Shown here: piece by piece, positions 8,432 through 46,219 of the stretch
Layout: every line of letters begins with the position of its first letter
Position numbering within the stretch: the first letter of the stretch is position 1
Origin: Candidatus Omnitrophota bacterium
Lineage (GTDB): Bacteria; Omnitrophota; Gorgyraeia; 2-01-FULL-45-10
NCBI GenBank assembly: GCA_041650935.1
Contig: JBAZKH010000006.1
Span: 29,505-93,504 of the forward strand
DNA length: 64,000 bases
Direction of reading: 5' to 3'
Notes under the pieces: model-generated
What the model was told of the DNA's origin: nothing
Seen by the model: only the letters and a program-made list of their open reading frames with translations
Databases searched by the model: none
Position numbers and translations under genes: made by a program

Positions 8432-8623
8432 ACAAGGGAGCGGGTCCTTACCGGCGCCCAGTGCGGGTCGGGCGAGGCGCGGCCTGTCAGTGATTACAGG
8501 ACAAAAAAACCGTGTCCGTGTCCCGACTTTTGAGGACCCCCGAGATCTCGTCACAAAAGGGGCAAAGAACCGCAATTAGCTGTGAATAAATGGGTTATGT
8601 CGGTAATTTAAGGAGAAAAGGGA

Positions 8624-9916: not shown

Positions 9917-10543
9917 GTGGCGGAAGAAAGCAGCAATCTAATAAAGTTAGCCAGGAAGAAGCGGCATATTCATCTTGTCGAGAAACTCGGCAAAGGATCG
10001 CTCAGTCAAAAGGAAATGGACGAGCTCGCCGGTTACGAGAAAGAGGTCGAAGGGCAGGTGCCGGTCCTCGCTGACGGAACTGTGGATCTTGAGACGATCG
10101 CCATCTATCTTGAGAAGTCGGTTAAAAGCATCAGGCGTTATGTAGATGCAGGGATGCCTGCCGTAAAGAGCCCGGCAGGCGAGATATTGAGATTCAAGGT
10201 TTCGGATGCGTTCAAATGGTTTTATTCGCGCGAGGGCTATGACGACGGGTCAAGAACCAAGTGGGATATCGAGTACCGCAAGAATAAGGCCAAGCTCTCC
10301 GAGATCGAACTCAAAGAAAAAGAGCGTGAGCTCATTCCGTACGAAGAACACGTTACTATCTTAAAAAATCAGATTCGGGGCATAAAGGCGGGCTTCTTAA
10401 GGTTACCGAAATATATCGCGCCGAGGCTTTATCAGCAGGAGCCTAAGGTCATCTGCGAAATGCTCGATAATGAGCTTCGTTATGTAATAGGACAGTTTTC
10501 GGGGAGTTATCATGCCGCTCAAAGTAAGCAAAAAAATTCTTAA
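9917..10543 (+). CDS. Putative terminase small subunit
   Basis: Sits directly upstream of and overlaps the large terminase gene. Small, basic and HTH-like. No strong motif. Confidence 0.4.
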   Translation: MAEESSNLIKLARKKRHIHLVEKLGKGSLSQKEMDELAGYEKEVEGQVPVLADGTVDLETIAIYLEKSVKSIRRYVDAGMPAVKSPAGEILRFKVSDAFKWFYSREGYDDGSRTKWDIEYRKNKAKLSEIELKEKERELIPYEEHVTILKNQIRGIKAGFLRLPKYIAPRLYQQEPKVICEMLDNELRYVIGQFSGSYHAAQSKQKNS

Positions 10544-12350
10544 AACGGTAAAGCCGTATATCCGGGACGAATGGTCTTTGCCCGACAAAATATCGGTATC
10601 CGACTGGGCGGACCTGAACAGGAGATTAGACGTGAAGACTTCGGCCGAGCCGGGCCAGTGGAATACATCCAGGACGCCTTACTTAAAGGGCATCATGGAT
10701 GCGTTCTCGGATCCTTTCGTGGAAGAGATAACCGTCATGTCGGCATCGCAGGTCGGTAAGACCGAAGCGATGTATAACATGCTCGGCTTCTTGATCGATC
10801 AGGACCCCGGGCCTACGCTCATGGTTCTTCCGAGGATAGACGACGCAAGGAGTATTTCGACGAACAGGGTTTTGCCGATGATACAATCAAGCCCTTGCCT
10901 TATGCGTTATATCCCGCAAAATTCGGACGAAATCACAAAGCTCGAGTATCATTTCGATCGCATGATCCTTTATTTCGCAGGATCCAACTCGCCGTCTGAT
11001 CTCGCTTCACGGCCTATAAGATATTTGTTTTTAGATGAAGTCGACAAATATCCGAAATTCTCGGGCCGTGAAGCAGATCCGATAAAACTGGCATCCGAGA
11101 GGCAGAAGACCTTCTGGAATAAGAAGACCGTCAAAGTCTCGACTCCTACGACAAGAGACGGTTATATTTACCGTGAATACGAAAAATCGGACATGTCAAG
11201 ATTTCACGTTCCTTGTCCTCATTGCGGTAAGCTACAGACCCTCGCATTTGGCCAGATTAAGTGGCCCAAGGAGGAGTCGGGCCCCGAGACCATAAAAAAC
11301 GACAAGCTCGCATGGTACGAGTGTATCGAATGTAAGGGCAGGATCGATGATAATCAAAAATCGAGAATGATGCTTCAAGGCAAATGGATCCCCGAAGTTA
11401 AAACCCGCACCAAGCACAAGGGCTTTTGGATTAATTCGCTATATTCGCCGTGGCTTACTTGGAGCGATATAGCGGCCGAATTCTTAAGATCTAAGGATTA
11501 CATAGAACTGCTCATGAACTTCGTCAACTCATGGCTTGCCGAGGTATGGGAAGAAAAGATCGAAGAGACGACAATCGATAAACTGCGCACCCTGGCGCGC
11601 GACTACGAGGAAGGATCGGTGCCGGATGATTGCCTGGTTCTTACGGCCGGGGTCGACGTTCAGAAGGATCACTTCTATTACGCCATAAGAGGGTGGGGTT
11701 ATTATGAGGAGTCGTGGCTTGTCCGGGCCGGCCGGTGCGAATACTGGGACGATATAGTCGACATCATCTTTAAGACCGAATATAAGAGGTCGTCCTCGGA
11801 AGAAGCATTATCGGTCTATATGTCCTGTGTCGATTCGGGGTTTAAGACCGACGAAGTGTACAGATTCTGCCGTCATTGGGCCGACAAGACCAAGGCCGTG
11901 AAGGGGCAGGAGGAGATATCGGGCGGAAGGTTCTACCGCGCCACGAAGATTGATATAAACTCGCGAACCGGCTCCGTGATCCCCGGAGGCCTCGTTCTCT
12001 GGAATATCAACACCAACCAATATAAGGACAAGCTGAATCGTCTTATTACCTCAAAGGACCCTGTTAAGTGGCATATCTTCCGAAATCCAACGGACGAATA
12101 TCTCAATCAAATGTCATCGGAGCATAAGATCCTGATTCGCAATAAGACTACGGGCAGGGCAAGAGAACTTTGGCAGAAAAAGAAAGAAGCGATCGCAAAT
12201 CACTTTCTTGATGCGGAGGTTTACGCACTTGCCGCGGCCGATATCATAAGGGCCTTAAATATAAGAAAAGACGACTCTAAGAGAGTTTACAAAAAAGAAG
12301 CGGCGAATAAAGAATCATGGATCAGGCGAAGAGAAGGAACATGGTTATAG
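10512..12350 (+). CDS. Terminase large subunit, lambda gpA family
   Basis: N-terminal ATPase with SASQVGKTE Walker-A-like motif. Central Cys4 zinc finger CPHCGK...CIECKG, typical of gpA-type terminases. 612 aa. Confidence 0.85.
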   Translation: MPLKVSKKILKTVKPYIRDEWSLPDKISVSDWADLNRRLDVKTSAEPGQWNTSRTPYLKGIMDAFSDPFVEEITVMSASQVGKTEAMYNMLGFLIDQDPGPTLMVLPRIDDARSISTNRVLPMIQSSPCLMRYIPQNSDEITKLEYHFDRMILYFAGSNSPSDLASRPIRYLFLDEVDKYPKFSGREADPIKLASERQKTFWNKKTVKVSTPTTRDGYIYREYEKSDMSRFHVPCPHCGKLQTLAFGQIKWPKEESGPETIKNDKLAWYECIECKGRIDDNQKSRMMLQGKWIPEVKTRTKHKGFWINSLYSPWLTWSDIAAEFLRSKDYIELLMNFVNSWLAEVWEEKIEETTIDKLRTLARDYEEGSVPDDCLVLTAGVDVQKDHFYYAIRGWGYYEESWLVRAGRCEYWDDIVDIIFKTEYKRSSSEEALSVYMSCVDSGFKTDEVYRFCRHWADKTKAVKGQEEISGGRFYRATKIDINSRTGSVIPGGLVLWNINTNQYKDKLNRLITSKDPVKWHIFRNPTDEYLNQMSSEHKILIRNKTTGRARELWQKKKEAIANHFLDAEVYALAAADIIRALNIRKDDSKRVYKKEAANKESWIRRREGTWL

Positions 12351-12351
12351 A

Positions 12352-12582
12352 ATGGCTCGGTGGCTTGAGAGGCGAGAGGGATGGCTTAAAAATGTATCGC
12401 ATGGCGATCGCCCCTCTAATAACGAAATCAAGAAGAGCGAAGACTACGGCGTTAAATATGTCCCTCTTAAGTGCCCTAAGTGCGGATCGAAAAAAGTCAG
12501 GTGTTACGCGACGTATCTTCCGACGAGATATCATACTTGTAAGAGTTGCGGGCATAAATTTAAGTCAATAGAAGAGGATTAA
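12352..12582 (+). CDS. Small zinc-ribbon protein
   Basis: CPKCGSKK...CKSCGH Cys4 motif. Confidence 0.35.
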   Translation: MARWLERREGWLKNVSHGDRPSNNEIKKSEDYGVKYVPLKCPKCGSKKVRCYATYLPTRYHTCKSCGHKFKSIEED

Positions 12583-12639
12583 GTGAAAAATACCGATTTT
12601 TGTTTTGTAGTAACGACCTACTTGTTAATTTCAGGATTT

Positions 12640-12666
12640 ATACTATTCTTAAGTTAAGAATAGTAT
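12640..12666. repeat. Perfect 13/1/13 palindrome ATACTATTCTTAA-G-TTAAGAATAGTAT
   Basis: Seen directly in the sequence, in the intergenic region between the terminase module and the head genes. A possible operator or cos-associated site. Confidence 0.5.
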
Positions 12667-12710
12667 AGAAACCGAGGGGGCGGCCACCTCTTCGGCATTA
12701 TCCAGTAAAA

Positions 12711-12746
12711 ACCCGATTCCTTAGCTAAGGGGGAATCGGGTTTTTT
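12711..12746 (+). terminator. Rho-independent terminator
   Basis: Stem CCCGATTCC (12712-12720) pairs with GGAATCGGG (12732-12740) around an 11-nt loop, followed by TTTTTT. Confidence 0.6.
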
Positions 12747-12747
12747 A

Positions 12748-12984
12748 TTGGACAGGAGAAATCAGATGCCGGCACCGACAAAACAGGAAATGCTGGACGC
12801 AGTTGAAAACGCCATACACGCAAAGATGACGGGAGGCGCGGTTCAGTCTTACTCGATCTCCGGCCGCAACATCCAGTATTACAGTCTGGACGAGTTAAGG
12901 CGCCTGCGTGATCAGTTACGTCAGGAGATCGCGGCCGGTAAATCCGGCGGCACCACATACGCGAGGTTCGATAATCCGCAATGA
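12748..12984 (+). CDS. Head-to-tail joining protein gpW-like
   Basis: AIHAKMTGGAVQSYSISGRNIQYYSLDELRRLRDQLRQEIA parallels lambda W (LHDLMTGKRVATV...GRRVEF...L.KYI.EL). Lies between terminase and portal as in lambda. Confidence 0.55.
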   Translation: MDRRNQMPAPTKQEMLDAVENAIHAKMTGGAVQSYSISGRNIQYYSLDELRRLRDQLRQEIAAGKSGGTTYARFDNPQ

Positions 12985-26698: not shown

Positions 26699-26824
26699 AT
26701 GACGTGCCAAAAGATTATGACGATGAAAGACGTCCGGGCCAAGACCTTGAAGAATAAAGATAAGATCTACGAGGGCAAGTGCGAAACTTGCGGCACCGCA
26801 ATTTATAAGAAGCGAGGTAACTAA
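26699..26824 (+). CDS. Small zinc-ribbon peptide (41 aa)
   Basis: MTCQ...GKCETCG. Its stop overlaps the start of the tail fibre gene (TAATG). Confidence 0.25.
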   Translation: MTCQKIMTMKDVRAKTLKNKDKIYEGKCETCGTAIYKKRGN

Positions 26825-27864
26825 TGGAAAGACATTATTTCGACGAGAACCAACCGCAAGGATCCATGTCGCTCATGAATCTGCGAAATTCATTAAGAGC
26901 GCTCTTCCAGGGCGATATTATGCCGCTTCGGCCGAGAGCAAGCTTTGTCCTGGACGATATGGAATACCCTACCGATTCGCAGGCTCAAAGCGTTTGGTCG
27001 GGAGCCGGATGCACGGTTACCCATTCATCGACCAAACAAGAGGGAAACTTCGCCCTGCAGGTTGTGATCGACGCGACGACCAACAGGCAGGTTACGAAGA
27101 TAAAGTCACTCGATCTCTCGGCTTTTAAAGAGATCCTTGTGTGGGAGAGGTGCTCGGGCGCGTCTCAGGCATTCAGGTTCTTTTTAGAGGATGCATCGGG
27201 CCATGTGAGCTACTGGCTTCTTACGAGCCACGCTACGGCCGGTACATGGAAGCAGGATATTTTAAATCTCGCGGCACCTGATGGGAACAACGGAACACCT
27301 GCCGTTTTATCGAACATCACGGATTATGGATTTTATCAACTCCCGGCAAGTCAGACCTTTATATTCGATACGATCAAAGCACGTTGCGGGATGAGTGTGG
27401 CGATAGATTCCTGCGAGATAGGAAGTTTCTATAAGCAGGCGTATATCGGGGGCCAGCCGATATCGATGACCGCAAAAGCATCGCCTGCCATTACGGCGCC
27501 CGCGGCAAACCCGAGGATCGATATCCTCGTGGTCAATTCGGCCGGGACCTTGGCATGGATCGCGGGTGCGGAGGCAGCGAATCCGGTTCCTAACTGGGCC
27601 GGTATTCCGTCAGCTCGTATTCCGATATGCCTTGTCTATTGCAAGACCACCATGGCGAAGGTAGTTGACTATGAGGATAAAGACGCGAATCCAAACGAAG
27701 GCTTTATATACAGCGATATAAGGCCTCTTTACTGGGCTGCGGTGAGTAACTTATCGGCCTTATCGGATGTCTCGATATCGGGCCTGGCCAATAACCATGT
27801 GCTTCGGTATAACTCAACGTCGGGCAAGTGGGAGAATAAAACCCCGCGGGCCGTTTACGCTTAA
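26824..27864 (+). CDS. Tail fibre / receptor-binding protein (putative)
   Basis: Position after the tail tip. Beta-rich sequence. No specific motif. Confidence 0.35.
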   Translation: MERHYFDENQPQGSMSLMNLRNSLRALFQGDIMPLRPRASFVLDDMEYPTDSQAQSVWSGAGCTVTHSSTKQEGNFALQVVIDATTNRQVTKIKSLDLSAFKEILVWERCSGASQAFRFFLEDASGHVSYWLLTSHATAGTWKQDILNLAAPDGNNGTPAVLSNITDYGFYQLPASQTFIFDTIKARCGMSVAIDSCEIGSFYKQAYIGGQPISMTAKASPAITAPAANPRIDILVVNSAGTLAWIAGAEAANPVPNWAGIPSARIPICLVYCKTTMAKVVDYEDKDANPNEGFIYSDIRPLYWAAVSNLSALSDVSISGLANNHVLRYNSTSGKWENKTPRAVYA

Positions 27865-27874: not shown

Positions 27875-28438
27875 ATGGGCAATTACGTTTCAGGAGCACC
27901 GAAGGATTCAGGCGGTAATCCGATCCCAGTTACCTGGACGGATGATCCGCTCGAGCAGGATACGACAGAGACCAAGAAACAGCACCTCGTCGAGATGAGG
28001 GCGGCCCTGCAGGCCTTGGACGGCCACTATCACGTCTTTAATGGGAACAACTCGCAAAGCGAGCTCCCGGACGTAGCCGTGTCGTGGCTTGTGCCGAGCG
28101 CGAATATCGTAATCGATGAGACGTTTGTCGCGGCACAGCACATAAACGAGATAATAGGTTTTATAAAGAACTTTGTCGGGCATTACCATTACGTTCCGGG
28201 ATACGGTGTAAACTCGACAACTTATTCGCCGAGCTTCAGTTTTGAGGACGATCCTGTCGGTGCCGATGTTACCTGGATCAAGGCAAGCGCCCACGAGGAG
28301 CTGAGGACGCATTTGGAAAGTCTGGCGGGTCATACGCATTCTGTATGCTGCGAGTGCGAATGCACCTGTACTTGTACCTGCGAGTGCACATGCGCGTGTA
28401 CCTGCACCTGCGAATGCCGGTGCGACGGGGAGATGTAA
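27875..28438 (+). CDS. Fibre-like protein with three helix+GHxH repeats and a C-terminal (Cys-X)13 tail, candidate substrate of the downstream radical SAM enzymes
   Basis: Three repeats ending GHYHVF, GHYHYV and GHTHSV. The C-terminus is CCECECTCTCTCECTCACTCTCECRCDGEM, i.e. 13 alternating Cys. An AAGGTGA RBS precedes the ATG. Its stop lies immediately before the rSAM start. Confidence 0.5.
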   Translation: MGNYVSGAPKDSGGNPIPVTWTDDPLEQDTTETKKQHLVEMRAALQALDGHYHVFNGNNSQSELPDVAVSWLVPSANIVIDETFVAAQHINEIIGFIKNFVGHYHYVPGYGVNSTTYSPSFSFEDDPVGADVTWIKASAHEELRTHLESLAGHTHSVCCECECTCTCTCECTCACTCTCECRCDGEM

Positions 28439-28440
28439 AG

Positions 28441-29550
28441 ATGAACTCTTGTTATTTAATGATGACGAACCGCTGCAATATGAACTGCTCTTACTGTTAC
28501 GAGAGGAAGTTTTTCAGGGGCAATCTGAAAGACATATCCGAAGAGACGGCAAAACAGGCGGTCGACTTCTTGGTCGCTAGTCATAAGCCGGGCAATAAGG
28601 CACGTCCTAATGAGGATATCAATATCTGTTATTTCGGGGGAGAACCTACATTAAACTGGGAGGTTCTTAAAAAGAACATCGTATATGTGCGCTCGATCGA
28701 AAAAGAAAAGAAGTTAAAGTTCGGCTTGTATCTTTTAACGAACGCAAAAGAGTTGCCTAAGGACGAGAAGGAGTTCTTTGGGGTCCTTCGAGATAACGGC
28801 GTAAAGATGCAGGTGTCCTTGGACGGCTGCAAGGAAGCCCATGACTCGACAAGAGGTCATTTCGACGTGATCGTAAAGAATACTCGAAAGATAATCGAAA
28901 ATCTTAATCGGCACATAATCGTGAGGATGACCGTTACGCCGGCTAATATCAGGCACGCTTATTCAAGCTTCAGAGCCATGGCGGAGCTCTCATGCACGGT
29001 CAACATGGTGCCGATCGTAGAGGAAGAGTGGACTAGTGATGCGATCGCCATAGCCAAGGAAGAATTCAAAAAGATTATGAATTACTATCAGAAGCTCTCG
29101 CGCATTAAGCCGGTAAAGTTTAACGTGGCCGAGAACTGTATTGACGGAGGATTCAGGCATTGTCAGACAGGAGCTTCCATGGTTTCGATTACCGTGGACG
29201 GCATCGTATATCCGTGTCACAGATTTCAGTTTCACCCCCAGCCGGAGAAAAACTGGAAGATGGGGGATGTGTTTAAAGGCGTGGAGCGATATCCGAATTT
29301 TAACGGCATATTCGCGAAGTGTTATTCGTGCGAGACCAATATCTGCCACCCATGTCCGTCCGCTTTTATCTTAAAGAACAGCGGCCGGGCCCCGGACTAT
29401 TACTGCAAATGGAATAAGGAGATCGAGGAGCTCGTAAGACCGCAGGCCTCGGAGGTAAGAAGCTATAACGAAAAAGAAGTCTACACGAAGAAACTCGATC
29501 TCATATTGGAAGGGTTGGGAGAAATACAGAAGTGCGTAAAAAAATCTTAA
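28441..29550 (+). CDS. Radical SAM enzyme with C-terminal SPASM domain (peptide-maturase/anSME-like)
   Basis: CNMNCSYCY (CxxxCxxC) near the N-terminus. SPASM-like C-terminal Cys array C(IDGGFRH)C...YPC...CYSCETNICHPCPSAF...YYC. The listed ORF start at 28345 is a spurious extension through the Cys-codon repeat. Confidence 0.8.
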   Translation: MNSCYLMMTNRCNMNCSYCYERKFFRGNLKDISEETAKQAVDFLVASHKPGNKARPNEDINICYFGGEPTLNWEVLKKNIVYVRSIEKEKKLKFGLYLLTNAKELPKDEKEFFGVLRDNGVKMQVSLDGCKEAHDSTRGHFDVIVKNTRKIIENLNRHIIVRMTVTPANIRHAYSSFRAMAELSCTVNMVPIVEEEWTSDAIAIAKEEFKKIMNYYQKLSRIKPVKFNVAENCIDGGFRHCQTGASMVSITVDGIVYPCHRFQFHPQPEKNWKMGDVFKGVERYPNFNGIFAKCYSCETNICHPCPSAFILKNSGRAPDYYCKWNKEIEELVRPQASEVRSYNEKEVYTKKLDLILEGLGEIQKCVKKS

Positions 29551-30821
29551 TAGTAAATCCTCCTGTCTTTACGCCGAAGCCGTGGAATAGCGTGGAAAAT
29601 GGCTCCATGGGGCCTTATGTCTTGGCTTCGTATTTGAGAGCCAACGGCGAGGAGGTTGCGCTGTTCGATTTTCTTACGGGAAGGAGGGGACTTGACGGAT
29701 GGGAAGATGTAAAGGTGGAAAGGGTCGCAAGGGCCGGTAATTACCTGGAGGAGCACCTTCAGAAGCGAATATATTATGCCGGCGCAAGTGAAAGGCACTA
29801 TATCGATTACCTTAAGGCCTACAAGCCGGATGAGGTATGGGTGTCGTGCCTTTTCACTTTCTACTGGGAAGGGGTCAAGTTTGTCTACGATGCCACAAGA
29901 GACTTTAACCCTTTAATCAAAATAAAACTGGGCGGTAACTATCCGACGCTTTGCCCGAGTCATGCGAGAGAGAACTTTCCGTGCGCGGATATAGTGGTTT
30001 CGGATCCGTGCGATATGAAGAGGTTTCAGAATATCGATATCGGGTTATACAGGGCTATCCCGCGGATGTTTCCGATACTTACCTCCGTGGGGTGTCCTTT
30101 CTCATGCGCATGGTGCGCGGTGCCTAAGCTTGAAGGCAGTACCATGAAGTTTAAAGATTCTTATGATGTGGTTTCGGATATCGAGGAAAAGTACCATTAC
30201 GGCATCAAGTCCTTCAGATTCATCGATTCTCACCTCCTGGCCGACTACGAGACGCATTTTAAGATAATCCTGGAAGAGCTTATAAAGAAGCCGTGGCGGG
30301 CCGAGCTTCATTCTTACGGAGGGCTTAATCCTCTTTATATAACGCAAGGCATACTCGAGCTCATGGCCGAGGCGGGATTTGTCAGGATCCAGCTTCCTAT
30401 CGAGACGATCAATGAAAATATACTGGAAAACAATAAGAGGGCCGTTTCGGCGATGAGGTGGGCGCTTGCAGTATGGAAACTTCGCAGGATTAAGAATTTT
30501 GAGATTACAAGCTATGTCTTATGCGGTATCCCGGGCCAGACTATTAAGGATATTTATAGGACGATCAATTTTGTAGAGGATCACGGCGTTACACCTGTGC
30601 CGTTATTTTTTACGCCTATACCCGGAACCCGATATGAGGACACAAGGCCTCTCGAGGACCTGCATCCGTACCTATTTCCTTACGCGTCAGGCGAGATGCC
30701 GGCTTCGGAACTTGAAAGAATACAGTCGAATTACTATACCGGGGGTATTCATGTTTCGGAAGCGATAACGGGGCCCAAGACCGTCTACGAGTCAGGGCCC
30801 GCGGTAAAGGTGGCAAGATGA
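29532..30821 (+). CDS. B12-binding domain radical SAM enzyme (class B, possible methyltransferase)
   Basis: N-terminal Rossmann-like B12-binding region (KILIVNPPVF...GPYVLASYLRANGEEVALFD). rSAM motif GCPFSCAWC (Cx3Cx2C). Overlaps the upstream rSAM gene. Confidence 0.75.
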   Translation: MRKKILIVNPPVFTPKPWNSVENGSMGPYVLASYLRANGEEVALFDFLTGRRGLDGWEDVKVERVARAGNYLEEHLQKRIYYAGASERHYIDYLKAYKPDEVWVSCLFTFYWEGVKFVYDATRDFNPLIKIKLGGNYPTLCPSHARENFPCADIVVSDPCDMKRFQNIDIGLYRAIPRMFPILTSVGCPFSCAWCAVPKLEGSTMKFKDSYDVVSDIEEKYHYGIKSFRFIDSHLLADYETHFKIILEELIKKPWRAELHSYGGLNPLYITQGILELMAEAGFVRIQLPIETINENILENNKRAVSAMRWALAVWKLRRIKNFEITSYVLCGIPGQTIKDIYRTINFVEDHGVTPVPLFFTPIPGTRYEDTRPLEDLHPYLFPYASGEMPASELERIQSNYYTGGIHVSEAITGPKTVYESGPAVKVAR

Positions 30822-31144
30822 TTCCTGTATGCCCGGAGTGCTCTAAGTTCGGAGATCCGACAAAGCTTTACATTGAGGGGACGAAATTAGTCTGTAAGGG
30901 TTGCGGTTTCGTGTATCCGAGCGAGTTCAAAGAAGAGGATGGGATGATTCTTTCAAAGGGCATAATAGAGCTTAATCCGAAGCCGGACTCGATCATGTAT
31001 GTGAAGGTTATAGATATGAAGGATCCGTCACGGCAGAGTTGCGAGGTTATAGAAACCTTGCCTCTCGTTCCTATTTTAAACGGCAGGGCCGTTAAATCCT
31101 ACACTGTGCGGGCCCGCTATGAGCTTGAGGTTTATTATGAATGA
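30818..31144 (+). CDS. Small zinc-ribbon protein, paralog family member 1
   Basis: CPEC...CKGC ribbon. C-terminal GRAVKSYTVRARYELEVYYE module shared with ORFs 31667 and 31854. Confidence 0.4.
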   Translation: MIPVCPECSKFGDPTKLYIEGTKLVCKGCGFVYPSEFKEEDGMILSKGIIELNPKPDSIMYVKVIDMKDPSRQSCEVIETLPLVPILNGRAVKSYTVRARYELEVYYE

Positions 31145-31679
31145 GAAGTCATCCTTTTGGGATGTCGTAAAAGCTCTAGGGCTAACGGAAGAAGATATCG
31201 TCATGGAATATAAGGCGTGGTTTATGTGGCACAACAGGACAAAGCCGGATCTGGTGCTGACGCTACTCATGGACTGGCGGTTCAGGGCCCTTTCAAAGGC
31301 GCGGTTCTATCTCGAGGTCATCTTAAAGACAAAGGATAAGAGGGCCGAGTTATTCGATATGCGTGAGTTCGAGAAGGCGCTTAACGAAGAGGTGACCGTA
31401 TACAGGGGTAACGCCGGGGTATTCAATCCCGCATACGAGGAGAAGTTTCATTTTGTGGCGATGACGGCCTCGTTCGATACGGCTCTAATGTTTGCCAAGT
31501 ATCCGGATGCCAAGGCAACGCATTTGCCGGCGCCTCCCGAACATAAGCAGTACTGGGTTATAGGGGTGACATTGCCCTTAAAAAACATCATGGCATACAG
31601 GGACCTGTCCGATCTCGAGGTCTGGATCGGAAAAGAATATTACAAAAACGCGAAGGTGCTTGTTCAATGCGGCGTATAG
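31119..31679 (+). CDS. Hypothetical protein
   Basis: 186 aa, no recognisable motif. Embedded in the operon. Confidence 0.3.
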   Translation: MSLRFIMNEKSSFWDVVKALGLTEEDIVMEYKAWFMWHNRTKPDLVLTLLMDWRFRALSKARFYLEVILKTKDKRAELFDMREFEKALNEEVTVYRGNAGVFNPAYEEKFHFVAMTASFDTALMFAKYPDAKATHLPAPPEHKQYWVIGVTLPLKNIMAYRDLSDLEVWIGKEYYKNAKVLVQCGV

Positions 31680-31852
31680 AGTTTATCGCTAGCCCGGAAA
31701 CAAGGCTTGAAATTCAGGAGACGGATAAGGATAAGAATATCCTGATCTGCCCGGCTCAAAAGTTAGAGAGGCATCCTTATATCGGAGGAAGGGCCGTAAA
31801 ACAGTACAAGGTAAAAATAGAATACGAAGCGATACCGCTTATCGGAGGTTAA
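31667..31852 (+). CDS. Small protein, paralog family member 2 (C-terminal module only)
   Basis: GRAVKQYKVKIEYEAIPL shared module. Confidence 0.35.
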   Translation: MRRIEFIASPETRLEIQETDKDKNILICPAQKLERHPYIGGRAVKQYKVKIEYEAIPLIGG

Positions 31853-31853
31853 T

Positions 31854-32183
31854 ATGATGGAATGCCCCAGGTGCGAAGAAAAGATTAAGCTCGTAAAAAC
31901 AGGCAGCGAGCTCGTATGCCCTAACTGCAAGTACGTTGATCCGAAACCCGCGCCCGCGGGCGACAGTTTCGTTGTGGCGGAGAAAACCGTATCTTTCGAG
32001 TGCGGGCCCGAAGACGTAATCAATCTCTTTAAAGACGTTGTGGTGCCGGGCGAAAAAGAGAATAAAGGGTTTTCGCGCGAGTTCGTATTAAAGCAGGTCC
32101 TTGAAAAAGAGCCGTTCGTGGGATCGGCAAAGGTGAAGAAATATTTGGTCGAGGCGCAGTATAAAGTTACGGCAATAGTATAA
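31854..32183 (+). CDS. Small zinc-ribbon protein, paralog family member 3
   Basis: CPRC...CPNC ribbon. C-terminal GSAKVKKYLVEAQYKVTAIV module. Confidence 0.4.
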   Translation: MMECPRCEEKIKLVKTGSELVCPNCKYVDPKPAPAGDSFVVAEKTVSFECGPEDVINLFKDVVVPGEKENKGFSREFVLKQVLEKEPFVGSAKVKKYLVEAQYKVTAIV

Positions 32184-32204
32184 AAAACGAAAGGAGAAAA
32201 GGTT

Positions 32205-32498
32205 ATGGGTAAAGAAGTTATCGGTTTTGAGGAGGTCACGGTAGATGACACGGTTAAGGTTCTCACGGCTTCCATCTATGCCCCGGCGCAGGGCCGGCAG
32301 GCCTCCAGGGCCATGATTACGGTTGAAGGCGGGAATATACGCTACAGGGTAGACGGTGGAAACCCCACATCCGCGTCCGGGCATCTTGCCACGGAAGGCG
32401 ATATTTTCGCGCTTGAGTCTATCTACGAAATAAAGAATTTCAAGGCGACTAGGGTCAGTACCGCATCGGGAAAGCTAGTAGTCAGTTACGAAGAGTGA
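32205..32498 (+). CDS. Hypothetical protein
   Basis: 97 aa ORF with a good RBS (AAAGGAGAAAAGG). Confidence 0.3.
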   Translation: MGKEVIGFEEVTVDDTVKVLTASIYAPAQGRQASRAMITVEGGNIRYRVDGGNPTSASGHLATEGDIFALESIYEIKNFKATRVSTASGKLVVSYEE

Positions 32499-32516
32499 GA
32501 AAGGGGAAATTTTATT

Positions 32517-33023
32517 ATGCTGTTTTTCCGAATAGTAAAATTTATAAGAGGCGTCCTGAAGACGGGGCAGACATACTCTAATCATCAGTATGACGACGGC
32601 TATTATCAGAAAGGCCTCCCGAAATACAACGACAGGTTTGTAGATAATCAGGACGGTACCATAACCGATAAGATCACCGGGCTTATGTGGGTAAAAGAAG
32701 TCTCGGCGTTGGGAGCGCCTTTTAATGCCGTCATGAACTGGGAGAGCGCCCTCAATAACTGCGAGAGCCTTGTTTACGCGGGGCATTCCGACTGGAGGGC
32801 TCCGAATATCAATGAAATACAAACTCTCATCGACTTCGGGAGGGCTAACCCTTCGATAAACACGGTCTTCTTCCCGAATACTCCGTGGGAGGGATTCTGG
32901 TCTAGTTCAGCTCTCTCGACTAACGGCTGGTTGGTCTGGTGCATATCTTTTGCGGACGGTTACAGATTTAATACGGGTCAGGACAGCAATTATTACGTCC
33001 GCCCCGTAAGGAATGCGTTTTAA
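32517..33023 (+). CDS. DUF1566 (Lcl C-terminal domain-like) protein, tail fibre-associated
   Basis: DKITGLMWVKE...WESALNNCESL...HSDWRAPNINEIQTL is the characteristic DUF1566 signature. Confidence 0.55.
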   Translation: MLFFRIVKFIRGVLKTGQTYSNHQYDDGYYQKGLPKYNDRFVDNQDGTITDKITGLMWVKEVSALGAPFNAVMNWESALNNCESLVYAGHSDWRAPNINEIQTLIDFGRANPSINTVFFPNTPWEGFWSSSALSTNGWLVWCISFADGYRFNTGQDSNYYVRPVRNAF

Positions 33024-36510: not shown

Positions 36511-37494
36511 TTGATGGAAAATCACGTTAAAGAGTTAGGCATAAAAGAACTGGCGGATTTTAAGCTGTATTTTAAGCTGCAAGGCTACGCCGATGGCAGC
36601 ATCCATCAATACGTCACCTATATGAAAGAATTTCTGCAGTATATAAAGGAAAAATCGATAGAGAAGTTGTCCGAGGTTACGCCGGAGGTAATATCCAAAT
36701 ATCAGCTGTATCTATCCACTGTTAAGCGCAAGCGCCCGGACAAAAAGAACCTGTCGATGATAACGCAGATCCATAAGATTGTGGCGATAATGCACTTCTT
36801 CAGATTTTTGGTAAGAGAGAAAAACTATCTATACGATCCCACGAGCCACATCAAGCTAAGAACCCCTCCGAGAAAGCGCGTCAGGGAGGTATTGTCCAAG
36901 AAGGAGATGTTAAGGCTCTTAAACGCCCCCAACCCCGAAACTCCTTTGGGGTTACGGGATAAGGCGTTACTGGAGCTGTATTATTCCTGCGGCATAAGGA
37001 ATACCGAATCGAGGATGCTTACGGTAAAAGACGCTGACCTCGAGAATAGACTCGTAAGGATCCGGTTTCCGAAAGGCGGAGGAGATCAGGGAGGAGATCA
37101 GACAGTACCTATCGGAAGGATCGCAGCATTGTATATAGACGAATATATAAGAAATGCCAGGCCGAAGCTCCTTAAAAACGATTTGGAAGAGACGCTGTTT
37201 CTGTCCAAGAACGGCAAGCCCTTAAGTGACGGCATGCCGGCGCATATAGTCCAGAAATACGCCGCAATCGCCAAGATTAATCGGAAAACAGACGCTCATA
37301 CTTTAAGGCATACGTGCGGAACTCATTTATATGATAACGGCGCTGATATAAGGTGCATTCAGGAACTACTCCGTCACAAGTCATTGGATACAACCCAGAT
37401 TTACATCGACGTCAAGGCCACGAAGTTGCGCAAGGTCTTGGAGAAGACCCATCCCAGGGAAAGGGGAATAGTATATGCTCCCGCTATTGAATGA
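36511..37494 (+). CDS. Tyrosine recombinase (integrase family), trio member 1
   Basis: HTLRHTCGTHLYDNGADIRCIQELLRHKSLDTTQIYIDV carries the R-HxxR-H-Y catalytic signature. Confidence 0.85.
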   Translation: MMENHVKELGIKELADFKLYFKLQGYADGSIHQYVTYMKEFLQYIKEKSIEKLSEVTPEVISKYQLYLSTVKRKRPDKKNLSMITQIHKIVAIMHFFRFLVREKNYLYDPTSHIKLRTPPRKRVREVLSKKEMLRLLNAPNPETPLGLRDKALLELYYSCGIRNTESRMLTVKDADLENRLVRIRFPKGGGDQGGDQTVPIGRIAALYIDEYIRNARPKLLKNDLEETLFLSKNGKPLSDGMPAHIVQKYAAIAKINRKTDAHTLRHTCGTHLYDNGADIRCIQELLRHKSLDTTQIYIDVKATKLRKVLEKTHPRERGIVYAPAIE

Positions 37495-38425
37495 GTTTAA
37501 GGACGGGCTCGAAAAGGAAGGCCTTCGTCAGTGCACGATCGAGAATATGGTAAGGCACGTTAATTTTTTCGCGAAATACTACAAGTCTTTCGATATGAGA
37601 AAGGTCTCGAGTAAAGATATCAAAAAATTCAAAATATACATCATGCTGGAGCATATTACCGAGAAAGGCAAAAATAAAGGCAAGAAGATATGCGTCGAAT
37701 ATGTCATATCCATACTATGTTCTTTGATGAAATACTTCAAATTTTTGGCGCAGAGAAGACATATATTTTTCGATCCGACGCTTGACTTGGAATTCCCGAA
37801 GAAGAATCCGCATTTTCCGGATTATATACCGAGCGAAAAAGATGTGCAGGAGCTGTTGCAAAAGCCGGATACGAATACTTACTGGGGGATAAGGGACAGG
37901 CTCTTATTTGAGCTTGCCTATACCTGTCCGCTACGAAACCAAGAACTTGGACGACTATGCATTCAGGATATCGATATGAAGGATAGATACATTTATCCGA
38001 AAAGAGAAAAAGGCGGGTATGAGTGCGGCATACCGATAACGGATTCTACGCATCAAATTTTGGAGAAATATCTTTCGATATCGCGCCCCCGGCTTTTGAA
38101 AGGAGCAAAAACCCCCACGATGACCGATAGATTGTTTATAACTATATACGGTGGTCCCTTCAAGAAGACTACCATAGACGATATATTCGCAAAATACCGG
38201 GGAGATAAGAGGATACATCCTCACTTGATGAGGCATGCCTGCGCCGTCCATATGCTGAAAGGCGGGGCAAGGATAAGGGATATTCAGGTTCTGTTGGGCC
38301 ACAGGCGACTGACCTCGACCAATCGCTATACTCGCCTGACAGCCAACGATATTAAAGACATACAAGATAAATATCATCCAAGGGAGAGGAGTGCTAGACG
38401 TGCTGCCGCTGTTGGACGAATTTAA
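37475..38425 (+). CDS. Tyrosine recombinase, trio member 2
   Basis: HPHLMRHACAVHMLKGGARIRDIQVLLGHRRLTSTNRYTRL. Overlaps member 1 by 20 nt. Confidence 0.85.
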   Translation: MLPLLNEFKDGLEKEGLRQCTIENMVRHVNFFAKYYKSFDMRKVSSKDIKKFKIYIMLEHITEKGKNKGKKICVEYVISILCSLMKYFKFLAQRRHIFFDPTLDLEFPKKNPHFPDYIPSEKDVQELLQKPDTNTYWGIRDRLLFELAYTCPLRNQELGRLCIQDIDMKDRYIYPKREKGGYECGIPITDSTHQILEKYLSISRPRLLKGAKTPTMTDRLFITIYGGPFKKTTIDDIFAKYRGDKRIHPHLMRHACAVHMLKGGARIRDIQVLLGHRRLTSTNRYTRLTANDIKDIQDKYHPRERSARRAAAVGRI

Positions 38426-40247
38426 GCAGAAGTTATTAAAGGAACACAAGCTTATAACTATGACCAACACGATAAGTATATGCTTTATGCTGGAAGACTG
38501 GTATGGGTCAGACCGCATGGAGAAGATAACATGCGAAGACCTTGATCGATTCAAAAAATATCTTATGACAGAATACATTACGCGTACTGGCGGGCATTAT
38601 CATCTTTCAACCATCGTAGCGAGGTTCGAAGGGCTAAAGAAATATTTTGCGTTTTTGATGGAGAAGAAATATATATCGAAGGACCCCATGTGCGGTCTTG
38701 AGTTCCCGAAGACAAAACCGCAACTGCCACCGTGGCTGCCTACAGAGAAAGAAGTCCGTGAGCTTATAAATAAAGTCGACGCAAGCTCGCCTCAGGGCTC
38801 GTCCGATAAGGCGGTAATCGCACTAATGTCGATCATGCCGTTAAAGAATAAGGAAGTGGGGCCACTTACGGTAGACCAGGTGGACATAGAGAATAGATGC
38901 GTATATCCTATAAAAGGATCGAAAGAGCTCGCGATACCGATGCCCGATCCTATCTTTGAAATACTGAATAAGTATATTACGAAGGATCGTTATCATATAG
39001 TCAAGTGGCTTAAAGCCCCGACAGACTTACTTTTCGTAAGCAGGCTCGGGACGGCGTTCTTTGAGTCAACGCTGAATAATATATTCTCTAGATATAACAG
39101 ATATGCTCCGCGCGAGAAGCGCATATATCCGTATCTTATGCGGCCGGCTACGGCCAACCATATGCGAAAAAGGGGAATGAAACTCGAGGACATCCATAAG
39201 ATCTTGGGCGTAAAATACAGAACCGTCGGTACCTATACAACTCTTGCCAGAAATGAAATAAGGGCGGAAGAGGAAAGATACGTGGCAAAGATACCTTTGT
39301 TCAAGGAGTTTAAAGAGAAACTCGTAAAAGACGAGTTATCCCCGAACATGATTCACAACGCTTTGAAGGCGATCATATTCTTTGCCAAGTATTTAAAGAG
39401 CGATGATATGAAAAAGATCACCCCTGCCGATATCGGAAGGTGCAAAAATTATGTTTTAAACGAGTATATTACCATCGAGAATAGAAAATTAACCGAACAA
39501 GAGGTGGCTTTGAGGTTGCGTGCTTTAAAGACATATTTCAATTTTCTTGCGGAGAGCAGGTATCTTTCGTCAGATCCGGCTGTAGATATAAAGATTCCGG
39601 ACGTCCCTCCTCGCATAAATTGGTATCGGCCGACAGATGAAGCTATAGAAGAGTTCGCATCTAGACCTGATCCGTATACATACGTAGGCATGCGAGATGC
39701 TGTGATAATACGATTGTGGCACCTTACCGCGTTAAAACCCAATGAGCATATGGATCTAAAAGTGCAAGATATAGATTTGAATAAGAAAGTGCTTTATGTG
39801 CCAGGGCCAAGACGTCGCACCTTGAAATTGGATGATAAAACATATAAGGCCGTCGAGCGATATCTTACCAAATCCAGGCCTGTATTCTTGAAGAAAGCCA
39901 AGGAGCCTACCGATAAGTTATTTATGAATGAATGGGGAGGTCCTCTTGCTCTATGTAGTATGTATGATATATTTTGGAAATATAAGGGCGACAGGAAGAT
40001 TAAACCATGCATTTCAAGGCATGCGAGGGCTCTCAAAATGTTTCGTGACGGCTCCAGCGCCGAAGAAGTTAAAAAGGCCTTAGGTTTTAGATCTATTAGA
40101 TCGTGCCAAGCTTATAAAGCGATGGTTGCGAAGGATGTAACTGGTTTCTATAAGAAGGATCGCTTTGAGGAGAAGGTCAGGCTTATTAGACGAGAAAAAC
40201 CCGCTTACCATTCAGATAATTCCAATCTTGTAACACTTCCCAAGTAG
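38391..40247 (+). CDS. Tandem double tyrosine-recombinase-fold protein, trio member 3
   Basis: Two successive recombinase modules: YPYLMRPATANHM...ILGV...GTY and ISRHARALKMF...ALGF...CQAY. Both lack the second conserved His. 618 aa. Overlaps member 2 by 35 nt. Confidence 0.65.
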   Translation: MLDVLPLLDEFKQKLLKEHKLITMTNTISICFMLEDWYGSDRMEKITCEDLDRFKKYLMTEYITRTGGHYHLSTIVARFEGLKKYFAFLMEKKYISKDPMCGLEFPKTKPQLPPWLPTEKEVRELINKVDASSPQGSSDKAVIALMSIMPLKNKEVGPLTVDQVDIENRCVYPIKGSKELAIPMPDPIFEILNKYITKDRYHIVKWLKAPTDLLFVSRLGTAFFESTLNNIFSRYNRYAPREKRIYPYLMRPATANHMRKRGMKLEDIHKILGVKYRTVGTYTTLARNEIRAEEERYVAKIPLFKEFKEKLVKDELSPNMIHNALKAIIFFAKYLKSDDMKKITPADIGRCKNYVLNEYITIENRKLTEQEVALRLRALKTYFNFLAESRYLSSDPAVDIKIPDVPPRINWYRPTDEAIEEFASRPDPYTYVGMRDAVIIRLWHLTALKPNEHMDLKVQDIDLNKKVLYVPGPRRRTLKLDDKTYKAVERYLTKSRPVFLKKAKEPTDKLFMNEWGGPLALCSMYDIFWKYKGDRKIKPCISRHARALKMFRDGSSAEEVKKALGFRSIRSCQAYKAMVAKDVTGFYKKDRFEEKVRLIRREKPAYHSDNSNLVTLPK

Positions 40248-43643: not shown

Positions 43644-44879
43644 ATGAAGAAACGAGTTGTTATAACAGGTGTGGGTGCTATTGCTTCCAATAGTATTGGT
43701 ATAGATGAATTTTGGGATGCTCTTAAAGCTGGTAAGAGTGGTATTAAAAAAATAACCAGTTTTGATACGAAACAATTCCCGACAAAAGTTGCCGGGGAGA
43801 TTACCGACTTTAACCCGGAAAAATTCCTTGATCTTAAACAGGCAAGAAGGATGGATAGGTTTGTTCAATTCGCAGTTTCGGTAGCGAAGATGGCGGTTAA
43901 AGATTCCGGCTTAAACATAAAAGAGGAAGATTCTAAGCGTATTGGAGTTATTACAGGCACTGCTACAGCCGGTCAGGGTTGGGTATTCACGCAATACGAA
44001 ATATTCCGGTCAAAGGGGTATAAAAGACTCAATCCTTTTACGGCAGCTTCGACCTTCCCTAACGCATCATCTTCTCAAATATCTCTTGAGTTCAAAATTA
44101 ACGGTCCAAGCGAGACATTCTCAACCGGCTGTGCCTCTGGTGGTATTGCTATGGGTCATGCACTTGAGCTAATCCGGAACAATAAGATTGATATTGCGAT
44201 TGTTGTAGGAAGTGAAGCATTGCTTTATGCGCCGATATTTGGAACATATTGTGTTGCTCGAATTATGTCAACCAAAGACGGGAGCATAATAAAAACACCT
44301 GCGCCTTTTGATAAAAATAGAGACGGCATGGTGTTAGCTGAAGGTGCCGGTTGCATAATTTTAGAAAGTCTTGATCATGCGAAAAAACGCAAAGCCCAAA
44401 TGTATGCAGAGTTTATCGGATGGGGTGAAACATGCGATGCATATCATATAATATCAACCGAACCCCACGGAAAAGAAGCAGAGCGCGCTATCCTGATGGC
44501 TATAGAAGATAGCGGTATAAAGCTAGACGATATTAATTATGTAAAGATGCATGGCATAGGTGATTCCGTTAACGATAAGATTGAAACGCAGGTTATGAAA
44601 CGAGTTTTCGGGAAAAAGGCTTATGATATTCCTATGACATCGATCAAGTCTATGATAGGGCATACCCAAGGTGCCTGCAGCGTTCTAGAGACGGTTTCAA
44701 CTGTTCTTGCGATGAAAAATAGTATGATTCCACCCACGATTAATTATGAGACGCCGGATCCCGAATGTGACTTAGACTATGTACCAAATAATGCCAGGTC
44801 TTATAAGATAAGTTGTGCTTTGATAAACACCTTTGGATTTGGCGGAAAAAACGTATCGCTAATCATTAAAAAAATATGA
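43644..44879 (+). CDS. Beta-ketoacyl-ACP synthase (KAS II / FabF-like)
   Basis: Active-site Cys in FSTGCASGGIAMGHA. His motifs HGIGD and GHTQGA. Terminal GFGGKN. Confidence 0.85.
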   Translation: MKKRVVITGVGAIASNSIGIDEFWDALKAGKSGIKKITSFDTKQFPTKVAGEITDFNPEKFLDLKQARRMDRFVQFAVSVAKMAVKDSGLNIKEEDSKRIGVITGTATAGQGWVFTQYEIFRSKGYKRLNPFTAASTFPNASSSQISLEFKINGPSETFSTGCASGGIAMGHALELIRNNKIDIAIVVGSEALLYAPIFGTYCVARIMSTKDGSIIKTPAPFDKNRDGMVLAEGAGCIILESLDHAKKRKAQMYAEFIGWGETCDAYHIISTEPHGKEAERAILMAIEDSGIKLDDINYVKMHGIGDSVNDKIETQVMKRVFGKKAYDIPMTSIKSMIGHTQGACSVLETVSTVLAMKNSMIPPTINYETPDPECDLDYVPNNARSYKISCALINTFGFGGKNVSLIIKKI

Positions 44880-46219
44880 AAATACTACTTATAAGGCCAT
44901 CAAGCTATGATGGCGTAGGCAAATTAAGGCGTTTCAAAAAAGCGTATATGCCTTTTTTGACGCTTCCACTTATCAAGGCATTAACGCCTAAAAATGTTGA
45001 AATAAGGCTTATAGACGAATATCTTGACGAAGTGGATTTTAAGGCACAGCCTGACTGTGTAGGAATCACAGGTTTAACTTCGAACATAAAAAGAAGCTAT
45101 GAGATAGCGAATAAGTTTAGAAGTAAAGGTGTAAGGGTAGTCTTGGGTGGCCACCACGTTACTGCATTACCTGATGAAGCGTTGCAACATGCTGATGCAG
45201 TAGTTATTGGCGAGGCTGAAAATGTTTGGGAAGATTTGATAAATGATTTATATAGCAAAAAACTAAAAAGAATCTACTCATGCGATACACTTTTTGATTT
45301 GAAAAATTCAATAATTCCTGACTATTCATCAATTGATCTAAAAAGGTATTTAAGCGCGCCATTTGCCAGAGGTCCTCTTTTTCCAATTCAGGCCACAAGA
45401 GGATGTCCCTTTGATTGCGAGTTTTGTTCTGTCGCATCTTTTTTTAAAGGCACATTTCGTACTAAACCTGTTAGTTTAATTTTAAAAGAAATAAAGCAAC
45501 TTCGAGCCACATATTACTTTTTTGTAGATGATAACATAATTGGTAATCCTTCCTACGCAAAGGAGTTGTTTGCTGCTCTGGTACCTTTAAAGATCCACTG
45601 GATAGGGCAATTTAGTACTACCATTCTCAAATTCCCAGAATTAGTCGAATTGGCGGGTAAGAGTGGGTGTACATCTGCATATATAGGGATAGAAAATTTA
45701 TCAGATAAAAATTTAAAAAGCGTAAAAAAAATTAATAAGATAAATGAATATTCTGATCTTTTAAATATGCTAAACAGAAATGGCATAAAGCCTTTTGTCA
45801 GTATGATACTCGGGATGGAAGATGATGATAAGGATGTATTTATACGTAATCTTGATTTTTTGATAAAAAATAAGGCAGGCAAAGCGTATTTCTATATTTT
45901 AACACCTTTCCCAGGGACCCCTCTTTTTGAAAGAATGAATAAGGAAAATAAAATAATAACTAAAGACTGGAATTGTTACGACGGATCTCGGGCTGTATTT
46001 AAACATAGTAGACTATCTTGTAAAGAGTTGGAAGACGGCTTGTGGTATTCGTACAGAAGATTTTTTTCGTTGTCCCAAATATTTAAAAGAAATTTTACAT
46101 ACTTATTTAAGAATCCATTGATGTATTTGGTGTTACTGTTTTATGATATGTATTTCCATAGTGCCATTTTAAAAAATACCCACCCCTTGAGCGAAGGGGG
46201 TAAGCATAGGATAAATTAA
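44876..46219 (+). CDS. B12-binding domain radical SAM enzyme
   Basis: N-terminal B12-binding fold (KILLIRPSSYDG...VGITGLTS...VVLGGHHVT). rSAM motif GCPFDCEFC. Overlaps the KAS gene. Confidence 0.8.
   Translation: MKILLIRPSSYDGVGKLRRFKKAYMPFLTLPLIKALTPKNVEIRLIDEYLDEVDFKAQPDCVGITGLTSNIKRSYEIANKFRSKGVRVVLGGHHVTALPDEALQHADAVVIGEAENVWEDLINDLYSKKLKRIYSCDTLFDLKNSIIPDYSSIDLKRYLSAPFARGPLFPIQATRGCPFDCEFCSVASFFKGTFRTKPVSLILKEIKQLRATYYFFVDDNIIGNPSYAKELFAALVPLKIHWIGQFSTTILKFPELVELAGKSGCTSAYIGIENLSDKNLKSVKKINKINEYSDLLNMLNRNGIKPFVSMILGMEDDDKDVFIRNLDFLIKNKAGKAYFYILTPFPGTPLFERMNKENKIITKDWNCYDGSRAVFKHSRLSCKELEDGLWYSYRRFFSLSQIFKRNFTYLFKNPLMYLVLLFYDMYFHSAILKNTHPLSEGGKHRIN

Follow-up and report, generated by a model that had tools for sequence, protein, structure and literature searches.

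Radical S-adenosylmethionine (radical SAM) enzymes that carry a SPASM domain are known as maturases of peptides that are made on ribosomes and then modified post-translationally (RiPPs), and from a few enzyme subunits such as QhpC. QhpC is the gamma-subunit of quinohemoprotein amine dehydrogenase, and its maturase, QhpD, is a SPASM radical SAM enzyme that puts several Cys-to-Asp/Glu thioethers into a protein subunit kept as a working part of a larger assembly instead of leaving it as a natural product. In SCIFF peptides, the acceptor residue is Thr and the product is a Cys-Thr gamma-thioether. Among phage tail proteins, the T4 gp37 needle holds Fe2+ through HxH motifs and lambda gpL carries a [4Fe-4S] cluster. 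The ranthipeptide maturase PapB links Cys to a downstream Asp or Glu with 0-6 residues between them (PMC9413430). Here we describe three adjacent genes, encoding a Cys-tailed protein, a SPASM radical SAM enzyme and a second, B12-type radical SAM enzyme, that lie in a prophage of a Candidatus Omnitrophota bacterium. They were found in a stretch of 64,000 nucleotides (assembly GCA_041650935.1, contig JBAZKH010000006.1, positions 29,505 to 93,504), which we call the window and to which all positions refer unless another locus is named (Table 1). A prediction made from these letters alone had proposed that the two enzymes modify the tip of a virion fibre. The trio is conserved in dozens of related phages, and this suggests that a late protein of the phage is modified by enzymes in a way not described before.

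Inspection of the open reading frames and the sequence found every sequence feature of the original prediction where it had been placed. The genes are tightly packed, as had been claimed: only 10 nt separate the stop of a 346-aa fibre-like gene from the start of the Cys-tailed gene, and the SPASM gene begins at ATG 28441, 2 bases past the TAA stop (28436-28438) of the Cys-tailed gene. The mechanical reading-frame start of the SPASM gene at 28345 belongs to the +1 frame across the Cys repeat, and ATG 28441 is the sensible start. The second radical SAM gene starts with GTG at 29532, overlaps the SPASM gene by 19 nt, and has a stop that overlaps the following ATG at 30818. From there small genes run gapless on the same strand to an Lcl_C (DUF1566) gene, which had been correctly placed 3′ of the cassette. 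A scan for promoters and terminators gave sites no more numerous than expected by chance.

The Cys-tailed protein ends ...GHTHSV-CCECECTCTCTCECTCACTCTCECRC-DGEM. Residues 158-183 contain 14 Cys, a CC doublet followed by 12 X-Cys pairs; the 13 strictly alternating cysteines reported earlier are there, together with one extra Cys. This tail is disordered in the AlphaFold2 (AF2) model of the protein. All complete homologues keep it, and in the 18 database homologues (38-90% identity) the three HxH pairs of the protein are invariant and the CCECEC core of the tail is nearly so. A profile search added about a dozen more divergent full-length members. The number of Cys per tail ranges from 8 to 16 across orthologues. 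Codon usage varies synonymously across loci, with both TGT and TGC for Cys and all four ACN forms for Thr. Because the Cys and Thr codons turn over in this way, we attribute the tail to selection on the protein and not to a DNA repeat translated out of frame.

Our scans of viral, genome and metagenome contigs found 45 distinct homologous loci, all of them on phage contigs or in Omnitrophota prophages. One version is carried by the complete Ca. Velamenicoccus archaeovorus LiM genome (NZ_CP019384.1, about 1.900-1.921 Mb), other relatives are annotated as Candidatus Omnitrophota metagenome-assembled genomes, and a B12-type protein identical to that of the window is encoded on a 153.5-kb JGI contig. 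Where the downstream sequence reached 2.8 kb or more, both radical SAM genes were present at every one of the 27 distinct loci; where it reached 1.2 kb or more, at least one radical SAM gene was adjacent at every one of 33. At two loci (L065 and L066) the order is permuted, so that the SPASM gene comes first, then the substrate gene and after it the B12-type gene. Thus, the adjacency of the trio survives rearrangement.

The enzymes form three clades: A, which is the window type, B, and C, which is found at locus L002. Clade-B enzymes are 31-33% identical to those of clade A, and the clade-B SPASM enzymes are 428-430 aa long with a C-terminal extension. Between A-type and B-type loci, the N-terminal domains of the substrates have kept about 70% identity, whereas both enzymes have fallen to 31-33%. 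The end of the tail switches with the enzymes. Tails ending ...QEQCCSECDCGD were paired with clade B at 20 of 20 loci, and tails ending ...EM, HI or QI were paired with clade A at 13 of 13 loci. Thus, the enzymes track the tail. We read this co-variation as enzyme-tail specificity combined with recombination inside the substrate gene. The trio behaves as the single cassette that was first proposed, tolerating both a permuted order and the replacement of its enzymes; these comparisons strongly support a functional unit of three genes and a link between enzymes and substrate. When the window is compared with L007-L018, L030 and L031, the distal part of the tail changes along with the enzymes, which suggests that recombination broke the substrate gene close to where the Cys tail begins.

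The SPASM enzyme was matched by Pfam Radical_SAM (39.9 bits, cut-off 29.5) and by Fer4_12. Its CX3CX2C motif (C12/C16/C19) is shared by clades A, B and C and by SCIFF maturases, and every phage clade retains its seven SPASM Cys (C241, C259, C294, C297, C302, C305 and C322). In all three clades the best NCBIfam model was that of the ranthipeptide maturase PapB (NF047865), with 171.5 bits in the window (A), 207.8 in L031 (B) and 214.6 in L002 (C), against a cut-off of 340. The next models were SCIFF maturase (126 bits), nif11, CcpM, QhpD, CXXX-repeat, HxsB and CefB, and nearly all other top models likewise describe Cys-directed maturases of peptides or proteins. The best match in the Protein Data Bank (PDB) was the thioether synthase CteB (5wgg, E 3e-21), aligned from CteB residue 101. 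Among database sequences, nothing lies between the orthologues, with at least 43% identity, and the SCIFF maturases, with about 30%. We place the enzyme in a clade that is related to the PapB family and distinct from it, and these matches support its belonging to the peptide- and protein-maturase part of the superfamily. Identification as anSME, QueE or viperin was rejected (anSME 44 bits, QueE-like PHROG E 9e-4 and pVip 46 bits, compared with 171 for PapB). PADLOC returned nothing past similarity in the radical SAM core, and no defence system.

The known Cys-directed systems resemble the phage cassette in part. PapA, the freyrasin precursor modified by PapB, is like the phage tail in being Cys-rich with acidic residues a few positions downstream, and PapB is the best model for all three SPASM clades. 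However, the phage enzyme scores about half the family cut-off and has neither a RiPP recognition element (RRE) nor a short leader peptide to act with. Its presumed substrate has 187 aa with a folded domain, and Cys at every second residue in place of CX3D/E motifs. Also unlike PapB/PapA, the cassette sits in a phage late operon without a protease or exporter and always includes a second, B12-type radical SAM enzyme. SCIFF and its maturase CteB (ScfB) offer the closest solved structure and the closest non-orthologous relatives (about 30% identity), and a Thr acceptor fits the Thr-rich phage tail. They differ in that CteB has an N-terminal extension of about 100 aa that contains an RRE, absent from the phage enzyme, and in that SCIFF is a peptide of about 45 aa with six Cys, without a second radical SAM enzyme and not phage-borne. 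QhpD was among the top models (88-133 bits), and by analogy QhpC is the best precedent for a product that is kept, although the scores fall below the cut-off of 453, the substrate fold and Cys spacing differ, and QhpC is a subunit of a periplasmic enzyme. The CXXX-repeat (TIGR04115/04119), CefB (NF038107, Cys at every fifth position) and CcpM systems, also among the model matches, pair a periodic-Cys substrate with an adjacent SPASM maturase. Their periodicity is 4 or 5, compared with 2 in the phage tail; the scores are below cut-offs, and these are chromosomal peptide systems that were defined bioinformatically.

The second enzyme was matched by Pfam Radical_SAM with 56.2 bits, and its CX3CX2C motif (C188/C192/C195) is invariant in 24 sequences. 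The AF2 model is confident (pLDDT, the predicted local distance difference test score, 88.5), and the top Foldseek matches were TsrM, MgmA, MtaB/MiaB/RimO, AprD4, OxsB, TokK and CysS. MgmA (9ccb) was also the best PDB match by sequence. Weak NCBIfam matches were to PhpK-type enzymes, lipid B12-type radical SAM enzymes, MiaB/RimO and the glutamine methylase of methyl-coenzyme M reductase. Several orthologues bear a precomputed match to the B12-binding family PF02310. From the model, the enzyme is predicted to consist of a Rossmann domain followed by a radical SAM domain. This architecture is shared with the class-B radical SAM enzymes (MgmA, Mmp10, PoyB/C and TsrM), of which MgmA gave the best sequence match and TsrM and MgmA the best folds. 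The use of cobalamin is suggested, and cobalamin-dependent methylation, by analogy with these enzymes, is our leading guess. Two more distant relatives of the B12 type (P0166 and P0168) occur in housekeeping contexts and were uninformative.

The N-terminal domain of the Cys-tailed protein consists of three true tandem repeats of about 45 aa (hhalign of the sub-alignments, probability 97.6-98.7%) of the form xPVxWTDDPl...T-x-IKA-x-H-x-x-ELR...L-x-G-HxH. The HxH motifs (GHYH 50-53, GHYH 102-105 and GHTH 152-155) each follow a helix and contain the invariant residues H51/53, H103/105 and H153/155; the last lies two residues ahead of the CC doublet. Residues 1-160 were modelled with confidence by AF2 (pLDDT 81, predicted template modelling score 0.77). 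The three HxH pairs may form a metal site at a pseudo-threefold axis, with the tail emerging there. The precursor of a canonical RiPP cluster is short and combines a disposable leader with a core. This protein is of another kind, having 187 aa of which residues 1-160 are folded and conserved.

The repeat unit, without the HxH, is not confined to this family. It was detected in 1,929 representative proteins (E<=1e-3). Most often it is present three times, either at the C-terminal end of long surface or fibre-like proteins rich in Ig or propeller domains or in small secreted proteins. The HxH and Cys-tail version is a specialized offshoot of this widespread unit. We rejected the idea that the unit is specific to tail fibres, as just 2 of 10 long examples had PHROG matches and the others resembled bacterial surface proteins. 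The unit, about 35 aa of the form ‘WTDxxL..G.T.IKAxHxxELRxAI’ (window 27875-28345, proteins P0187-P0318), is unnamed in Pfam. In a few of the proteins (P0222 and P0237), the units are also followed by irregular Cys-rich regions.

The cassette lies within a tail-fibre operon, as the original prediction stated, and in three phage architectures it is co-oriented within virion or tail-fibre modules. In window-type and B-type phages the order is J-like protein, fibre-like gene, cassette, the 97-aa protein (orf97) with Lcl_C, and small membrane proteins, with four extra accessory genes after the enzymes in type-A cassettes. The window and the loci of the L001/L005/L007 type have this placement after the J-like protein and a fibre gene. 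At L002 the cassette has a Phage_Tail_Tip/tail-fibre protein on one side and, on the other, a DUF2793 tail-fibre protein of 1115 aa. In a different phage (L003) a major capsid protein, an SU10-type adaptor and an Lcl_C protein precede the cassette and a virion structural protein follows it, so that Lcl_C is upstream there and downstream in the window type. The further claim that a protease and a transporter are missing held for both the window and its relatives: no peptidase or transporter family, and no immunity-like gene, was found among the genes at 26.8-36.5 kb or in homologous loci.

The 346-aa fibre-like protein has syntenic orthologues that are 87-93% identical, and its PHROG matches are confined to a C-terminal motif at residues 305-343. 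The fibre-like genes 5′ of the Cys-tailed gene in the window (26824-27864), L031 (9419-9991) and L061 (154-846) are otherwise unrelated and have a C-terminal ending in common. The L031 (190 aa) and L061 (230 aa) proteins end ...PPRAVYA and ...TAKYA. This common ...PRAVYA or ...AKYA ending may be a docking motif.

An analogous arrangement was found in an unrelated phage, on a 135.8-kb viral contig (L019, IMGVR_UViG_3300032251_000001, 7626-12871). Two tail-fibre genes are followed by a radical SAM gene, two genes for Cys-repeat proteins and four more radical SAM genes, of which one encodes a SPASM domain. An endolysin gene lies downstream. The tandem proteins of about 200 aa have C-terminal halves of the form (CxCxCNYx)n, preceded by ‘...PIRASIIELLKAL..I.NHC’. 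Homology of the window protein to them was not significant (hhalign E 0.06), and we treat the likeness as an analogy. The same design appears to have arisen in this phage, or to have diverged beyond recognition.

Based on these results, we propose a model in which the trio is a phage-borne cassette for protein maturation, the Cys tail is its modified part, and the product is probably a virion-associated accessory of the tail fibre. On balance we favour this model. The N-terminal domain, with its three helix-HxH repeats, would play the docking role that a leader peptide and an RRE play elsewhere, and it may also bind metal. The unstructured (Cys-X)n tail would be the part that is modified. The SPASM enzyme, which lacks an RRE, would most likely use 5′-deoxyadenosyl radical chemistry to bond the sulfur of each linked Cys to a carbon in the side chain of a Thr, Glu, Asp or Gln that alternates with the cysteines. 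Because PapB links Cys to Asp or Glu across 0-6 residues, the C-E-C-E-C spacing is chemically plausible, and by analogy we infer that the cross-links are thioethers. The outcome would be a C-terminal rod that is densely stapled by thioethers and resistant to proteases. The second enzyme would add a second radical modification, for which the class-B enzymes MgmA and TsrM make C-methylation the likeliest candidate by analogy. Because the loci encode no protease or exporter, we propose that the product stays joined to its N-terminal domain; it would be made along with the late (tail-fibre) genes. The placement in structural modules, the coupling to the fibre gene and the missing release machinery favour a virion-associated role, and we infer that the N-terminal domain serves recognition and that the product enters the virion.

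We also considered a bolder form of this model, which we regard as possible but would not yet assert. It holds that in Omnitrophota phages, and independently in at least one large unrelated phage, dedicated radical SAM enzymes convert the (Cys-X)n C-terminus of a small metal-binding accessory protein of the fibre into a thioether-laddered, methylated rod in the tail tip of the virion. This would be the first structural protein of a virus modified by radical SAM enzymes, and a SPASM maturase would recognize it as a folded substrate, in a new way that is independent of an RRE.

Several results weigh against our model. The SPASM enzymes all score lower than the cut-offs of the curated families (PapB 171-215 against 340), the Pfam SPASM model PF13186 did not match the window enzyme at E 0.01, and an RRE was not found either fused or nearby, with no PqqD/RRE Pfam match in any neighbouring protein. 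The absence of a fused RRE follows from the N-termini of the phage SPASM enzymes, which start 10-20 residues (about 10 in the window) ahead of CX3CX2C. For the second enzyme, the PF02310 match reached 26.1 bits, short of the cut-off of 32.1, and its fold also fits enzymes that do not use cobalamin (MiaB/RimO and AprD4); it is 13-17% identical to the class-B enzymes, and methylthiotransferases and AprD4 fit the fold almost equally well. The Cys-tailed protein itself had no PHROG, Pfam or NCBIfam match, no homology or fold match to known virion proteins (best BFVD E 0.3), and no match in 50,697 GenBank phage records. Its repeat module is common in secreted and surface proteins outside phages, and only some carriers are phage-like. 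Finally, the window-type cassette sits at the junction of the tail-fibre and lysis genes, a classic site for morons (cargo genes). The earlier idea of fibre-tip modification is supported in part, by the three-gene unit (27 of 27 loci), the maturase affinity (PapB best) and the setting of the cassette in virion or tail-fibre modules.

The junction site is one reason to consider that the cassette is such RiPP-like cargo, with a long precursor whose Cys-rich product is cleaved by a host protease, or left uncleaved, and acts outside the virion. Set free by lysis or by lysogens, the product would serve either the phage or its predatory Omnitrophota host as a toxin, a metallophore or a signal. This would agree with RiPP maturases being the nearest relatives of the enzymes, with a substrate unlike known virion proteins, and with the long leader-like domains of nif11/NHLP-type precursors. 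We nevertheless think this explanation unlikely. At none of the loci does the cassette contain or adjoin a protease, an exporter, an immunity gene or an RRE. The N-terminal domain is confidently folded over 160 aa and strongly conserved, more so than the enzymes, which would not be expected of a leader that is discarded. In L002 and L003, moreover, structural genes lie on both flanks, and the gap of 10 nt to the fibre gene shows tight coupling.

A second alternative draws on the conservation of nine His and 14 Cys. The HxH triads and the 14-Cys strand would ligate metal or iron-sulfur clusters without covalent cross-links, as a tail-tip cofactor in the manner of metallothionein or gpL, and the two radical SAM enzymes would act elsewhere or merely aid the loading of clusters or metal. 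The HxH motifs and Cys clusters in a tail-module protein do recall T4 gp37, where HxH ligates Fe2+, and the [4Fe-4S] tail tips of the lambda gpL type, and thiolate-metal sites would be stable in anaerobic hosts. However, no sequence or fold relation to gp37 or gpL was detected, and those proteins need no dedicated radical SAM enzymes. Metal binding without cross-links leaves unexplained the strict co-inheritance of the two enzymes and the co-variation of enzyme clade with tail type, and the SPASM enzyme is far nearer to Cys-cross-linking maturases than to cluster-assembly enzymes, with NifB-type models absent from the top 25. We therefore consider it rather improbable in this form, and note that metal binding and cross-linking are mutually compatible.

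The weakest alternative, that the Cys run is an artefact of a frameshifted or slipped TGY-ACN low-complexity repeat with radical SAM genes adjoining by coincidence, could draw on a number of CT units that differs among close relatives (L007 and L012), consistent with some repeat slippage, and on the +1 frame, which is likewise open across the repeat, but we reject it with near certainty because the frame, stop codon and CCECEC core are conserved at 38-93% protein identity, TGT/TGC and ACN codons vary synonymously, and the loci number 45 independent cases. The original prediction had named three findings that would count against it, and none was obtained: the enzyme is not an anSME or QueE, orthologues keep the tail, and the tail is not a frameshifted repeat.

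The enzyme classes in our model are known. What is new is a folded substrate with Cys at every second position, a maturase that lacks an RRE, its obligate B12-type partner enzyme and the context of a phage tail module. Our full-text literature search did not find such a phage cassette described, and NCBIfam and Pfam hold no curated family of Cys-every-second substrates. If the model is true, SPASM maturases can recognize a folded protein domain in place of the leader/RRE pair, and nature provides a PapB-like enzyme free of an RRE together with a compact CCECECTCTC... tag that could serve peptide stapling. It would also reveal a new way of hardening or functionalizing a tail tip in anoxic habitats. 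Omnitrophota are ultra-small predatory or epibiotic bacteria, and their phages are essentially unstudied.

Table 1. Features of the cassette and adjoining genes in the window
Feature	Position	Strand	Remarks
Fibre-like protein, 346 aa	26824..27864	+	C-terminal motif LRYNSTSGKWENKTPRAVYA; directly 5′ of the Cys-tailed gene
Cys-tailed protein, 187 aa, presumed substrate	27875..28438	+	Open reading frame; 45 distinct homologous loci
N-terminal domain of the Cys-tailed protein	27875..28345	+	Three tandem beta-alpha repeats of ~45 aa, each ending in HxH
(Cys-X)n tail, residues 158-183	28346..28423	+	CC + 12 x (X-Cys), X = E/T/A/R
Radical SAM/SPASM enzyme, 369 aa, PapB/SCIFF-like, without N-terminal RRE	28441..29550	+	Pfam, NCBIfam and PDB matches
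Rossmann (B12-binding-like) + radical SAM enzyme, 429 aa	29532..30821	+	Pfam Radical_SAM, AF2, Foldseek
Zinc-ribbon protein, 108 aa, accessory	30818..31144	+	Type-A cassettes only; paralogue of 31667..31852 and 31854..32183
Accessory protein without assigned function, 186 aa	31119..31679	+	Type-A loci only
61-aa protein	31667..31852	+	C-terminal segment common to both zinc-ribbon proteins
Zinc-ribbon protein, 109 aa	31854..32183	+	Paralogue of 30818..31144
97-aa protein (orf97)	32205..32498	+	Conserved 3′ of the cassette at type-A and type-B loci
Lcl_C (DUF1566) protein	32517..33023	+	Pfam PF07603, E 1.1e-31; conserved downstream of the cassette

The small paralogues of 108, 61 and 109 aa (30818-32183) share a C-terminal segment ‘P-x-x-G-x-x-VK-x-Y-x-V-x-x-x-Y’. 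Two of the three have an N-terminal zinc ribbon, and the paralogues accompany clade-A cassettes only. At L065 a 108-aa gene related to them also follows the substrate gene.

Upstream of the cassette, the window encodes TerL, portal, major capsid protein, a tube-like protein, tape measure, DUF2460 and gp84/BR0599 proteins, and a J-like protein of 1031 aa with NlpC_P60, Phage-tail_3 and fn3 domains. The downstream genes encode small membrane proteins, a protein of 738 aa and three tyrosine recombinases in tandem. From this gene content we classify the element as a siphovirus-type prophage with a tail tip like those of RcGTA and phiJL001. The description ‘lambda-like’ is thus apt only in the broad sense; the tail tip is not lambda’s own. 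Genes outside about 5.9-42 kb are bacterial (histidine kinases, an ECF sigma factor, beta-ketoacyl synthase (KAS) and RHS), and GC content falls there; therefore, we consider the element to be integrated.

The recombinase genes at the right prophage end (36511-40247) follow one another directly, encode proteins of 327, 316 and 618 aa, and resemble a tyrosine-recombinase-trio element more than a single phage integrase. In the early/packaging region, just 5′ of the terminase gene, the prophage carries a C-5 cytosine DNA methylase (6421-7272) and a fusion of ParB_N with an N6/N4 DNA methylase (8624-9916). Among the host genes, a beta-ketoacyl synthase is immediately followed by a B12-binding radical SAM protein (43644-46219, PF02310 44.6 bits). 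The pair is of the lipid type and has no relation to the phage enzyme; by itself it does not prove that the host makes or imports cobalamin. Adjoining the prophage at 49246-57244, a protein of 1262 aa with five FlgD_ig domains and CHU_C domains (type IX secretion signal) is followed by an RHS-repeat protein of 1258 aa, and the two represent large cargo of the surface or toxin type.

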